DNA of 27,471 nt, from positions 1 through 27,471 of the forward strand of contig CAYGGS010000001.1 of NCBI GenBank assembly GCA_964349545.1, read 5' to 3'. Both the position numbers and the translations under genes were made by a program. The notes beneath the pieces are model-generated. The model did no database searches. It saw only the letters and a list, made by a program, of their open reading frames with translations, and had not been told where the DNA came from. Shown here in pieces: positions 7,048-13,509 of the stretch. How positions within the stretch are numbered: position 1 is the stretch's first letter; each line of letters begins with the position of its first letter. The DNA is from an uncultured Gammaproteobacteria bacterium (GTDB lineage: Bacteria; Patescibacteriota; Patescibacteriia; SBBC01).

Positions 7048-8235
7048 ATGAAGAAATCGGTACAAAGGAACAAGGTCGTCATCACGTCCGAATCGGTCAC
7101 CGAAGGGCATCCCGACAAGGTTTGCGATCAGATATCGGACGCCATCCTCGATGCCGTGCTCAGGAAGGATCCCGCAGGAAGGGTCGCCGTCGAGACGCTC
7201 GTAGCCACAGGGCTCGTGGTCATCGCAGGCCAGGTGACGACGAAGACCTACGTCGACATCCCGAAGATAGCGCGTGCGACGATACGTCGCATCGGCTATG
7301 CGAACCACGATTACGGTTTCCACTGGGAAGATTGCGGCATACTCGTATCCATAGACGAACAGAGCCCGGACATCGCGCAGGGAGTGAACGCCGACAAGAC
7401 GCACCAGCTTGGTGCGGGCGACCAAGGGCTCATGTTCGGGTACGCGACGAACGAAACACGCGAGTTGATGCCGCTCCCGATCGTGTTAAGCCATCGGCTC
7501 GCCAAGATGCTGGCGCACGTCCGCAAGGACGGCACGCTCCCATACCTCAGACCCGACGGAAAGACCGAGGTGGCGATCGAATACGTCCGAGGAAAGCCAA
7601 AACGTCTTACGACCGTGGTCATTGCGGCGCAGCACGATGACGACGTGCCTGAAGCGCGGCTTGCCCGGGACATCATGCGGTACGTCATTCGACCGACCTG
7701 TGGCCGATGGCTCACCCCTTCGACGAAGTTCTACATCAACGCGACCGGGAAGTTCGTGAAGGGCGGCCCACCGGCAGATACCGGCGTGACGGGACGCAAG
7801 ATCATCGTTGATACGTACGGTGGCTTCAGCAGGCATGGCGGGGGATGCTTCTCCGGAAAGGACCCTACCAAGGTCGATCGATCGGCCTCGTATGCCGCCC
7901 GGTACGTCGCTAAGAACATCGTCGCTGCGAAGTTGGCCGATCGATGCGAGGTCCAGATCGCGTACGTGATCGGCGTAGCCGAGCCCATCAGCATCATGGT
8001 CGAGACGTTCGGTACCAGCGTGTACTCCCCAGAGCAGCTCGAGTCGATCGTGCGGAAGAACTTCGACCTGCGACCGTCAGCGATCATCGATGACCTGAAA
8101 CTACGACGCCCCATCTATGAACAGACCGCTGCGTACGGCCACTTCGGCAGGTCGGGAAACGCGTTCACATGGGAAAGAACCGACAAGGTCAAAGCACTAC
8201 AGCGCTCCGTTAAGCATCTTCGGGGGCGTCCATGA
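7048..8235 (+). CDS. metK: S-adenosylmethionine synthetase
   Basis: [46 protein letters not shown] signatures. Confidence 0.98.
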
Positions 8236-8687
8236 TCGACGGCGTCGTCATAAAGGACCTCGTCACGCATCATGACGATCGCGGTAATTTCCGCGAGATA
8301 CTCCGTGATGATGACGAGCTTATGTCATCGTTCGGTCAGGCATCGATCACGACGACCTATCCCGGCGTCGTCAAGGCCTTCCACTGGCATGCGAAGCAGG
8401 ACGACCTTTGGTACGTGGTCTCGGGTATGGCGCAGGTCGTTCTGTACGATCGACGGGACGGATCACCGACGAAAGGGATGACCGACGTCATCTACGCCGG
8501 AGATGAGAACCAGGTGCTGATCAAGATCCCCGTCGGCGTGCTCCACGGCTATCGCGTGCTCGGTCCGCACCCGGTAAAGCTCGTGTATTTCACCACCCGA
8601 TCCTACGTCGCGAAGGACCCTGATGAGTTCCGCGTACCGCACGATGACCCGGAGATCCATTTCGATTGGATGACACGAAATCGATGA
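8232..8687 (+). CDS. rmlC: dTDP-4-dehydrorhamnose 3,5-epimerase (short SpsL-like form)
   Basis: [27 protein letters not shown] cupin motifs; 151 aa; ATGA-coupled on both sides. Confidence 0.88.
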
Positions 8688-9643
8688 AGGCTGTGGTCGC
8701 TGTCTCGGGATCGCTCGCGTTCGACCGCATCTTCGACTATCCGGGGCGGTTCAGGGATGCCATCAATCCGAAGAAGCTCCACCTGCTCAATGTCAGTTTC
8801 ATGGTGAGATCGGTCAAGGAGAGCTACGGAGGGACAGCAGGAAACATCGGCTATTCGCTCGCGCTTCTCGGTGCAAAACCGATGGTCATCGGTTCGGTAG
8901 GGAACGATTTCGGACGGTACCGTGGCTGGTTGTCACGGCATGGTGTGGGCTGCTCACAGGTACTTGTCAGGCGATCGATGACCACCGCATCGGCCTACAT
9001 CATCACCGACAAGGATGATAACCAGATCTCCGTGTTCCATTCCGGAGCCTTGTCGTCCGGCATCAGCGCAACAGGAGGCACGTTGCGCCAGGCCTTACGG
9101 AGCGTACACTATGCGATCATCGCGCCGGACGATCCGGTTTCGATGGTCCGTATGTCAGCACGATGCCGAACGGCAGGGGTACCTTATCTCTTCGACCCTG
9201 GCCAGCAGCTCACCTCGGTCACCCGCGAACAGCTCCGCAAGATGCTGGTCCATGCGGATGGCGTCGTGTCCAACGATTACGAACTCTCGCTCCTGCTAGA
9301 CCGCTCGGGTATGTCGCTCACCGCGTTGCGCGCAACGGTGCGGTACGTGGTCACGACGCTCGGGGCGAAGGGGTCGATCGTCCACCATGGACGTACATCG
9401 TATCGAATCCCTCCGGTTCGGCCGAAGTCGATCATCGATCCGACCGGAGCTGGTGATGCCTACCGTGCTGGATTCGTCAGGGGGCTCCTCGCGACCGGTT
9501 CGTTCAGCATCGCAGGTAGGATGGGCTCGCTCGCAAGCGCATATACGGTAGAAAGACATGGGACGCAAACGCACGAATATTCGGTAACCCGGTTCATAAG
9601 ACGCTATCGTTCCTCCTTTTCGACGCCATTATCACTAACGTAA
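8684..9643 (+). CDS. PfkB-family nucleoside kinase, likely adenosine kinase (mycobacterial AdoK-like)
   Basis: GSLAFDRIFDYPGRF, GGTAGNI, DPGQQ, NDYE, DPTGAGDAYRAG resemble the M. tuberculosis AdoK type; lies next to ahcY. Start moved to ATG 8684 (ATGA overlap). Confidence 0.8.
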   Translation: MKAVVAVSGSLAFDRIFDYPGRFRDAINPKKLHLLNVSFMVRSVKESYGGTAGNIGYSLALLGAKPMVIGSVGNDFGRYRGWLSRHGVGCSQVLVRRSMTTASAYIITDKDDNQISVFHSGALSSGISATGGTLRQALRSVHYAIIAPDDPVSMVRMSARCRTAGVPYLFDPGQQLTSVTREQLRKMLVHADGVVSNDYELSLLLDRSGMSLTALRATVRYVVTTLGAKGSIVHHGRTSYRIPPVRPKSIIDPTGAGDAYRAGFVRGLLATGSFSIAGRMGSLASAYTVERHGTQTHEYSVTRFIRRYRSSFSTPLSLT

Positions 9644-9653
9644 ACGGGTTACT

Positions 9654-11916: not shown

Positions 11917-11920
11917 ACGG

Positions 11921-12769
11921 ATGAAGGTCATAGTGTTGGGGTCCGACGGAACGCTGGGGACGTCGCTTCTGAACGTACGGCATGAAGGATATAAGCTCAT
12001 CCCCTGGACCGTGGGGAATTGCGACCTCACCGATCTGCCCTCGATCGGACCTGCGCTGGCGCAGGAATCACCCGACCTCATCATCAACGCATCGGCCTAT
12101 ACCGATGTTGATGGCGCAGAGAAGAACGAACAACTGGCAACATTGATCAACGCGGAGGCGGTAGGTCAGATCGCGATGTATTGTGCAGCCCATCGTATAC
12201 CCCTGGTCCATTTCTCGACCGATTACGTGTTTTCAGGGTCCACGACGGAAGGGTACGCGGAACATGACGTGCCTGCCCCGATCAATGCATACGGACGGAG
12301 CAAATTACGCGGAGAATCCTTGCTCGTAGGGTCAGGCTGCCCCTACCTTTGTATTAGGACGTCCCGTTTATTCGGCAGGTCTTCCGCGGCACAGGGAAAG
12401 AAGAACTTCATCGAAAAGATGCTCGAACTTGCACGGCAACGATCGCCGCTTTCCGTCGTTGATGATGAACGTACGAGCCCGACCTTCGCCGATGATCTGG
12501 CACGATCGACCTACGACCTTCTTCGGGGTGGAGCGAGCGGAATGTTCCACCGGACGAACGATGGCGATTGCACATGGTACGAACTCGCGCAAGAGGTGTT
12601 TTCTATAGTCCCACTTCCTGTCACACTAGTTCCAGTACCTGGCGCGACCTTTCCACGTCTTGCACGACGACCCGAACGTTCGACGCTGAAGACCACGAAG
12701 GTACCTCCTCTACGGGCATGGAGGGAATCGGTGAAGGAGTACTTATCCACAAATCCTAGAACCATATGA
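11921..12769 (+). CDS. rmlD: dTDP-4-dehydrorhamnose reductase
   Basis: GSDGTLG, AYTDVDGAE, STDYVF, YGRSK, VVDDERTSPT, ARRP. Start moved to ATG 11921. Confidence 0.93.
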   Translation: MKVIVLGSDGTLGTSLLNVRHEGYKLIPWTVGNCDLTDLPSIGPALAQESPDLIINASAYTDVDGAEKNEQLATLINAEAVGQIAMYCAAHRIPLVHFSTDYVFSGSTTEGYAEHDVPAPINAYGRSKLRGESLLVGSGCPYLCIRTSRLFGRSSAAQGKKNFIEKMLELARQRSPLSVVDDERTSPTFADDLARSTYDLLRGGASGMFHRTNDGDCTWYELAQEVFSIVPLPVTLVPVPGATFPRLARRPERSTLKTTKVPPLRAWRESVKEYLSTNPRTI

Positions 12770-13509
12770 AAGGCATCATTCTCGCTGGTGGGGCCGGAAC
12801 ACGTCTCCGTCCGCTGACAACGGTCACGAGCAAGCAGCTTCTGCCGGTCTACGACAAACCGATGATATTCTATCCACTTCAGACATTGTTGGACGCCGGC
12901 ATCACCGAAATCCTCGTGATCGTTGCTCCCGACCATGCCGGCGATTATCTCCATATACTCGGCTCTGGCAGGCAGTTCGGTGCAAAGATCACGTACGAGG
13001 TCCAGGAAAAACCCGAAGGCCTTGCGCAGGCCTTCATCATCGGAGAGACGTTCATCGGTGACGATTCCGTCACACTCATTCTTGGTGATAACCTGTTCCT
13101 TGACGATCAAAAGACCATTACGAAATCGATCGAGACGTTTAAGGGTGGTGCGTGCATCTTCGCTACCAAGGTCGAGAATCCGGAACGATTTGGCGTCATC
13201 GAATTCGATGGGGACATGAAGGTACGATCGATCGTAGAAAAACCATCCCGTCCTGCTTCGAATTACGCCGTCACCGGTCTGTACATCTACGACAACTCGG
13301 TCATAACGCGCGCAAAAGCGCTTGTCCCTTCGGAGCGGAACGAACTGGAGATAACCGATCTTCAGAGATCATACCTCGCATCGAACGAGCTGGTCGTGCA
13401 GATCATCCATGGCGCGTACCTCGACACCGGCACGTTCGATTCATTGCTGGCCGCGAACGTCCTCGTCGCACAGCGGAAAAAAGGAAGGTCCGGTCACGCT
13501 ACGGACTAG
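12766..13509 (+). CDS. rmlA: Glucose-1-phosphate thymidylyltransferase (short, 247 aa)
   Basis: GIILAGGAGTRLRPLT, SKQLLPVYDKPMI, GLAQAF, LILGDN, ELEITD, LDTGTFDSL. Confidence 0.93.
   Translation: MKGIILAGGAGTRLRPLTTVTSKQLLPVYDKPMIFYPLQTLLDAGITEILVIVAPDHAGDYLHILGSGRQFGAKITYEVQEKPEGLAQAFIIGETFIGDDSVTLILGDNLFLDDQKTITKSIETFKGGACIFATKVENPERFGVIEFDGDMKVRSIVEKPSRPASNYAVTGLYIYDNSVITRAKALVPSERNELEITDLQRSYLASNELVVQIIHGAYLDTGTFDSLLAANVLVAQRKKGRSGHATD

Follow-up and report, generated by a model that had tools for sequence, protein, structure and literature searches.

Why do genes for the synthesis of S-adenosylmethionine (SAM) and the disposal of S-adenosylhomocysteine (SAH) lie within a dTDP-rhamnose operon? 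The question is raised by positions 7048–13509 of a 27,471 nt stretch (positions 1–27,471, referred to here as the window) of contig CAYGGS010000001.1 in GenBank assembly GCA_964349545.1. Family scans gave the gene order, all on the + strand, as metK, a gene for an RmlC-like cupin, a PfkB-family kinase gene (adoK), ahcY, rmlB, rmlD and rmlA. An earlier note on this DNA proposed that high methyl flux is coupled here to the synthesis of a surface glycan, for example one with O-methylated rhamnose on a coat or pili. The explanation to which we give somewhat better than an even chance is a historical one, namely a constitutively co-transcribed housekeeping operon of mixed function in a promoter-poor minimal genome. 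The argument draws on gene identities, tight co-directional packing, recurrence of the arrangement in other genomes, phylogenetic clustering of the AhcY sequences, and survival of the rml block where the SAM genes are missing. The source genome, which GTDB places in the Patescibacteriota (the candidate phyla radiation or CPR), is a 1.0 Mb draft in 156 contigs, 92.8 % complete with an estimated contamination of 3.7 %. Genomes of relatives range from 0.6 to 1.6 Mb.

The metK product (7048–8235) matched TIGR01034 for methionine adenosyltransferase (SAM synthetase) with 561 bits (cut-off 309.4), and the ahcY product (9654–10910) matched TIGR00936 for S-adenosyl-L-homocysteine hydrolase with 616.2 bits (cut-off 497.6). 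Both genes are present in single copy. RmlB, dTDP-glucose 4,6-dehydratase (10912–11916; TIGR01181, 439.6 bits, cut-off 365.1), and RmlD, dTDP-4-dehydrorhamnose reductase (11921–12769; TIGR01214, 258.7 bits, cut-off 224), were likewise recognized. A longer rmlD reading frame from 11846 would share 71 nt with rmlB. Similarity to the family sets in at the ATG at 11921, 4 nt past the rmlB stop codon, which is most likely the start. RmlA, a putative glucose-1-phosphate thymidylyltransferase (12766–13509; PF00483, 214.6 bits, well over the cut-off), is the last gene product of the unit and a short form of 247 aa. It scored 306 bits against TIGR01207, under the cut-off of 360.65, because the protein ends at position 237 of the 286 in the profile; the RmlA proteins of relatives have the same short length. 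The RmlC-like cupin (8232–8687, 151 aa; PF00908, 67.8 bits, cut-off 27), presumed to be the dTDP-4-dehydrorhamnose 3,5-epimerase, is considered further below. The junctions, taken from the sequence, include ATGA overlaps at 6005, 8232, 8684 and 12766, and gaps of 20 nt ahead of metK, 10 nt between adoK and ahcY, 1 nt between ahcY and rmlB, and 4 nt between rmlB and rmlD. The gene order, the last three overlaps and the short gaps are as the earlier note had described them, and its grouping of MetK, the PfkB-type adenosine kinase and AhcY as a module for SAM synthesis and SAH disposal is likewise supported.

The PfkB-family kinase (8684–9643) has no NCBIfam equivalog match. It aligned end to end (residues 4–302, one indel, 192.9 bits) with the adenosine kinase of Mycobacterium tuberculosis (2pkf/4o1g), and a further solved relative is a Burkholderia protein deposited as 'ribokinase, putative'. 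In an alignment of 26 orthologs, D14, G49-G50, N54, F118 and D258 are invariant and Q174 nearly so; the aligned residues of the M. tuberculosis enzyme are ones that we take to be adenosine-binding or catalytic. When this alignment was used as the query in a pattern scan of 185,579 species genomes, 80 loci were returned, in which the PfkB gene is followed immediately by AhcY, often with MetK as well. The holders of this pair include many CPR groups (Daviesbacteria, Buchananbacteria, Doudnabacteria and others), Chloroflexota, Bacillota and Actinomycetota. Assignment of the kinase as an adenosine kinase of the M. tuberculosis type is well supported, and AdoK-AhcY, with or without MetK, is on this comparative evidence a widespread, self-contained unit predicted to dispose of SAH. 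Two Bacillota loci (L100:7047–7892 and L123:7060–7917) each have PfkB-AhcY with a gene for a class-I methyltransferase directly upstream, and in a Thermodesulfobacteriota locus (L117:8913–10756) two class-I methyltransferase genes lie between PfkB and AhcY. An association of methyltransferase and PfkB-AhcY genes of the kind expected in the earlier note was thus found in those loci and not in the CPR loci examined. PNP_UDP_1 (Pfs/MTAN-like) was considered as an alternative SAH route that might separate relatives with AhcY from those without, and was uninformative, being present in all five genomes tested.

To what extent is the embedding of this pair in rml genes shared? Within a sample of 401 genomes of the window's class, 51 AhcY loci were fetched; these were picked from coordinate lists and the proportions given here are hence not unbiased estimates. 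Two orders recur, RmlC-PfkB-AhcY-RmlB-RmlD-RmlA-(PEGA)-MurA-S41-L9 and RmlA-RmlC-PfkB-AhcY-RmlB-RmlD-..., and were found in 37 loci from 21 families of the class, with families f50 and f58 added by coordinates. AdoK lies directly 5' of AhcY, with a gap of at most 150 nt, in 25 of 33 class loci. The AhcY-RmlB junction is direct in 17 of the 37; in the other 20 the gap is longer, and most of these hold inserted genes. The remaining AhcY loci of the class have AhcY with PfkB and/or MetK and no rml genes. Elsewhere in the phylum, 40 AhcY loci representing 33 families were compared, and the rml embedding was seen in only three of them, from two families (f132 and f211); PfkB adjoins AhcY in 21 of the 40 and MetK in six. 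In all, at least 23 families of the class and two families outside it have AdoK-AhcY placed between RmlC and RmlB.

This recurrence also disposes of the simplest alternative, that the order is a chance juxtaposition or an assembly artefact of one metagenome-assembled genome. The number of contigs in the draft and its estimated contamination give some reason to consider it. However, the same order is seen in at least 47 genomes, including the single-contig assemblies G051 and G126, and the GC content is uniform across the region, so that either is barely conceivable. The AhcY-rml link is, however, no better conserved than the flanks. MurA is present beside 32 of the 37 embedded class loci and S41 beside 30, and no pathway would be inferred from an equally conserved rml-murA-ctpA-rplI neighbourhood.

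The earlier note had looked to recurrence in independent CPR lineages for support. The embedding does recur and is not peculiar to this genome, but the lineages are not independent. In a maximum-likelihood tree of AhcY with 116 rows, all 43 rml-embedded sequences fall inside one clade of 74 rows, which argues for inheritance rather than repeated assembly of the neighbourhood. The embedding label changes seven times on this tree, compared with about 35 times when labels are shuffled, and the well-supported branches force only two changes, so that a single origin is nearly, not quite, allowed. A separate tree of 76 rows agrees, and contains a well-supported subclade of 15 rows with PfkB-AhcY(-MetK) and no rml genes, nested inside the embedded clade; among its members are rows whose records bear the title Buchananbacteria. 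Convergent, independent origins would be the strongest sign that the neighbourhood is functionally coupled, and the AhcY trees do not support them. The pattern is that of an insertion made once or twice in the distant past, then inherited and now and again escaped from, and not of independent recruitment. Two genomes of the same class, G025 (locus L011) and G031 (L012), have an AhcY that lies outside an rml cluster and groups with a Thermodesulfobacteriota sequence (support 100); it is probably a horizontally acquired replacement.

If the link served rhamnose methylation, a methyltransferase might be looked for nearby. As the earlier note had stated, family scans of the window found no methyltransferase and no methionine synthase. 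No methyltransferase gene stands between ahcY and its rml neighbours in 91 related CPR loci either, and none of 20 representative inserted genes scanned from related loci encodes a methyltransferase. A home-made class-I methyltransferase hidden Markov model, which was built from the domains of the source genome and would miss folds other than class I, found nothing between RmlC/RmlA and RmlD in the CPR loci scanned, and its matches lay several kb outside the core. Across the source genome there are 14 class-I methyltransferase matches, together with 12 matches to GT2 and about 17 to GT4 glycosyltransferases. Two methyltransferase genes have glycosyltransferase neighbours. On contig C13 (L151), positions 8535–13676 (− strand) hold a cluster of GT2, methyltransferase, a 507-aa protein with no Pfam match, GT2, GT2 and DUF4012, followed by MreB and GT4. 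The start of this methyltransferase gene (11848–12804, Methyltransf_11/25) overlaps a GT2 stop codon, and four relatives in the window's family have the protein at 57–75 % identity. It may methylate a glycan or a lipid carrier. On contig C59 (L154; 3919–6065, − strand), a Methyltransf_23 gene (5043–6065, 340 aa) lies immediately upstream of a GT4 gene, and this pair adjoins a gene for a 1033-aa protein without a Pfam match. The genome search for glycan methyltransferases proposed in the earlier note therefore gave class-I enzymes beside glycosyltransferases on two contigs; of the other families it named, FkbM (PF05050) had no match in the genome and TylF (PF05711) a single match of 14 bits, under the cut-off. 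Methylated glycans are plausible in this organism, given the glycosyltransferase neighbours of the two genes. Both clusters are unlinked to the rml-ahcY locus.

The methyl cycle also appears to be open, as the MetH and MetE domains PF02574 and PF01717, each positive in nine of 14 reference genomes, had no match in the 92.8 %-complete source genome. The cell thus probably takes up methionine from outside and does not recycle homocysteine.

The position of metK is less widely shared than that of the AdoK-AhcY pair. Only in the family of the window (f1) does it adjoin the rml block. The window and G003 are the only cases in which it lies within 3 kb of AhcY; the distance is 3.3 kb in G005 and about 32 kb in G035 and G040, and elsewhere metK is on other contigs. 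Within the same family, G004 (99 % complete; locus L013, G004:C57:9000–28900) has the block S8-GtrA-GT2-UXS-Ugd-RmlC-RmlB-RmlD-RmlA-PEGA-MurA-S41-L9, in which the RmlC and RmlB matches are about 3 nt apart. Searches of the G004 genome found no MetK, no AhcY and no PfkB of the AdoK type (only weak partial PfkB matches, 40 bits). It retains a 57 %-identical ortholog of the glycosyltransferase-linked C13 methyltransferase, so that rhamnose synthesis and this methyltransferase persist without the SAM module, and retention of SAM-dependent methyltransferases without MetK implies that SAM is imported or has another source. G002, from the window's genus (87 % complete), also lacks MetK, AhcY and an AdoK-type PfkB. 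Among 41 relatives, nine have both MetK and AhcY, three AhcY only, eight MetK only and 21 neither; MetK and AhcY tend to co-occur, in genomes that are not independent of one another. In the 401 sampled genomes of the class, RmlB was found in 332 and AhcY in 123, making rml 2.7 times more widespread, and most rhamnose producers thus lack the SAM module.

These comparisons bear on the proposal of the earlier note, in which SAM supply and SAH removal would be co-expressed with dTDP-rhamnose synthesis because the rhamnan or glycoprotein at the surface carries O-methyl groups. Other bacteria are known to have methyl-capped rhamnans. The conserved embedding and the occurrence in this genome of at least two class-I methyltransferases among glycosyltransferases agree with the proposal. 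On none of the three points that the note had named as grounds for giving it up did the data go against it, as the arrangement recurs, glycosyltransferase-linked methyltransferases exist, and no internal promoters were detected. However, no methyltransferase occurs in the window or in the rml-ahcY core of any related locus, and the FkbM and TylF searches gave nothing above cut-off. The embedded AhcY sequences form one clade, the metK adjacency is specific to one family, rml genes far outnumber AhcY, and G004 keeps a C13-type methyltransferase and the whole rml block with none of the three SAM genes. Moreover, a chain-terminating methyl cap would need no high methyl flux. Taken together, these points go against coupling of a high methyl flux to rhamnose or glycan methylation, which we regard as very unlikely.

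Is the unit at least transcribed as one? A co-directional run of + strand genes extends from base 19 to 13509. The earlier note had placed a promoter at 5209, and a candidate is present there (5209–5243, + strand; TTGCGG, 17 nt, TATACT, 6 nt ahead of the ATG at 5244). It is weak, with 8 of 12 consensus positions matched, under the threshold of 9 used in the promoter scan, and read-through into the gene at 5244 is equally possible because the genes upstream run in the same direction. Across 4500–15200, a consensus scan found promoter-like and terminator-like sites at or below the numbers expected from shuffled sequence; as the counts do not exceed the shuffles, no internal signal divides the SAM and rml modules. 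An Rfam search of the window found no SAM or SAH riboswitch, nor any other Rfam family.

The genes inserted in the cluster in other families suggest a different rationale. In other families of the class, and in a record labelled Doudnabacteria, genes for NUDIX proteins of about 180 aa, HIT proteins of about 137 aa and HD proteins of about 200 aa recurrently lie between ahcY and the rml genes; loci with these inserts include L060–L062, L040, L033, L030, L109, L055 and L044. Other inserts are Ugd, Gmd/Fcl, PHP, PEBP, canonical RmlC, an aminotransferase, ADH, MBOAT/DltD, LRR proteins and unknowns, and the NUDIX proteins belong to three unrelated groups. The block could be read as a collection of enzymes for nucleosides, nucleotides and nucleotide-sugars, in organisms that are believed to be incapable of making nucleotides de novo. 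AhcY and AdoK would recover adenosine monophosphate (AMP) from SAH, the NUDIX, HIT and HD proteins would trim nucleotide derivatives, Rml, Ugd, UXS and Gmd enzymes would use nucleoside triphosphates, and co-transcription would balance salvage against demand for nucleotide-sugars. Besides the inserts (NUDIX, HIT, HD, PHP, Ugd and Gmd/Fcl), membership of AdoK in a nucleoside-kinase family is in keeping with this, as is the CTP synthase gene (pyrG, 17915–19567) that directly follows rplI in the window, a further nucleotide-metabolism gene of the conserved block. However, adenosine and AMP have no direct biochemical link to dTTP or dTDP-sugars, the window itself has none of the accessory hydrolases, and the theme could merely mirror the genes that are common in small genomes. 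We consider such a nucleotide economy rather unlikely.

The historical explanation accounts for these observations as follows. The ancestor of a large CPR clade, made up of the window's class together with a few families close to it, would have acquired an AdoK-AhcY pair between rmlC and rmlB. This pair would clear SAH, an inhibitor of methyltransferases, and salvage its adenosine as AMP. It would then have been inherited with the surrounding block, rmlC/B/D/A-PEGA-murA-ctpA(S41)-rplI, and metK would additionally have moved next to the block in the window's own family. The three SAM genes would serve general methylation, by rRNA, tRNA and protein methyltransferases and some glycan methyltransferases encoded elsewhere in the genome. 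We infer that SAM and nucleotide-sugar genes share a transcript because a cell with a 1-Mb genome and few promoters has a constitutive need for both, and not on account of rhamnose methylation. Three points weigh on the other side. The link has been kept across at least 23 families although AhcY has diverged to about 52–65 % identity, half of the junctions are still tight, and the related genomes counted are not independent, so that the counts overstate support. Such long persistence could reflect selection for co-expression, and on these data neutral retention and weak selection are indistinguishable. A stronger version, that persistence of AdoK-AhcY in the rml operon over the history of the class was selected with SAH clearance and adenosine salvage tied stoichiometrically to envelope-glycan output, seems to us distinctly unlikely. 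The cause of such a tie would be either a methylated rhamnose polymer or the balancing of scarce salvaged nucleotides between SAM turnover and nucleotide-sugars. The evidence favours inheritance over function.

Upstream of metK, and following a 36-nt gap, the gene at 5244–6008 (+) encodes a GT2 glycosyltransferase resembling polyprenyl-phosphate sugar synthases (PF00535, 64.5 bits). The next gene (6005–7027, +) encodes a UXS/ArnA-like short-chain dehydrogenase/reductase, a nucleotide-sugar enzyme (PF01370, 155 bits; PF16363, 153 bits), with orthologs of 77–79 % identity in the same position in G003, G004 and G005. In these three relatives, Ugd (UDP-glucose dehydrogenase) lies between UXS/MetK and RmlC. 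No close Ugd homolog was found anywhere in the source assembly, where the best match is partial, at 28 % identity, on contig C27, leaving the UXS-like enzyme without an obvious source of UDP-glucuronate. On the 3' side, rmlA is met by a convergent gene for a PEGA-domain protein (13506–14909, −) that overlaps its stop codon. The source assembly is titled 'uncultured Gammaproteobacteria bacterium', and other records with this title carry CPR-type loci, namely L119 (CAYHVQ010000014.1) and probably L074, L080, L090 and L092. The gene order of L119 matches that of a contig of G079, a genome of the window's class, which points to taxonomic mislabelling.

Can the short cupin stand in for RmlC? It is the sole PF00908 member in the genome and a divergent one, scoring 53.8 bits against TIGR01221 (cut-off 155.75); its best match in the PDB is 3ejk, a 'dTDP sugar isomerase'. 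The catalytic residues of RmlC are His, Lys, Tyr and Asp. His51 and Tyr119 of the cupin occupy invariant columns shared with canonical RmlC, and the canonical QGKLV segment reads QDDLW, so that the Lys is absent. Across the class, three types of cupin fill this slot: the short 151-aa form with QDDLW found in the window; canonical RmlC of 186 aa (PF00908, 242 bits; L062:14158–14718); and an N-terminally extended type of about 183 aa that reads QEDIW (L033:7176–7727). Occupation of the same slot by a canonical or third type elsewhere suggests that the short cupin is functionally equivalent, and the three types in one slot look like paralog displacement. The forms without Lys raise the question of how epimerization is catalysed.

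All seven enzymes belong to textbook families, and the locus offers no new mechanism. Its novelty lies in an rml operon variant, documented across a clade, into which an SAH-disposal pair is built, and it provides a useful synteny marker for this CPR class. Gain and loss affect MetK, AdoK and AhcY together as one unit, and some close relatives apparently live without SAM synthesis, which bears on the dependence of episymbionts on their hosts. Were the coupling functional, methylation of wall glycans or nucleotide budgeting in CPR bacteria would be indicated; if its persistence was selected, organisms unable to make nucleotides de novo would have a form of regulatory coupling that has not been described before.

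Three known systems can be compared with this locus. Glycan clusters with embedded SAM-dependent methyltransferases exist, for example those for methyl-capped O-antigens and S-layer rhamnans. The C13 and C59 methyltransferases, flanked by GT2 and GT4 genes, resemble these. However, they are on other contigs, a relative without the SAM module has kept a glycosyltransferase-linked methyltransferase, and the rml-ahcY cluster itself has no methyltransferase in any genome examined. The AhcY branch of the activated methyl cycle is represented by single copies of MetK, AhcY and the M. tuberculosis-type adenosine kinase, and differs from it here in having neither MetH nor MetE and no SAM/SAH riboswitch, and in lying inside a sugar operon. 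The PfkB-AhcY(-MetK) clusters of Chloroflexota, Bacillota and other CPR bacteria are the evident source of the arrangement. A full-text literature search found no description of ahcY or adoK inside rml operons, and rmlABCD has already been reported in a CPR genome (PMC5220378). The locus shares with the rmlABCD (rfb) operon an RmlB and an RmlD that pass the NCBIfam equivalog cut-offs, an RmlA and an RmlC-family cupin, and its genes resemble those of classical rml operons in running in one direction with translational coupling. It differs in that its RmlC is a 151-aa protein without the canonical Lys and its RmlA is short by about 40 C-terminal residues, and in that two unrelated genes, adoK and ahcY, split rmlC from rmlB and metK precedes rmlC.

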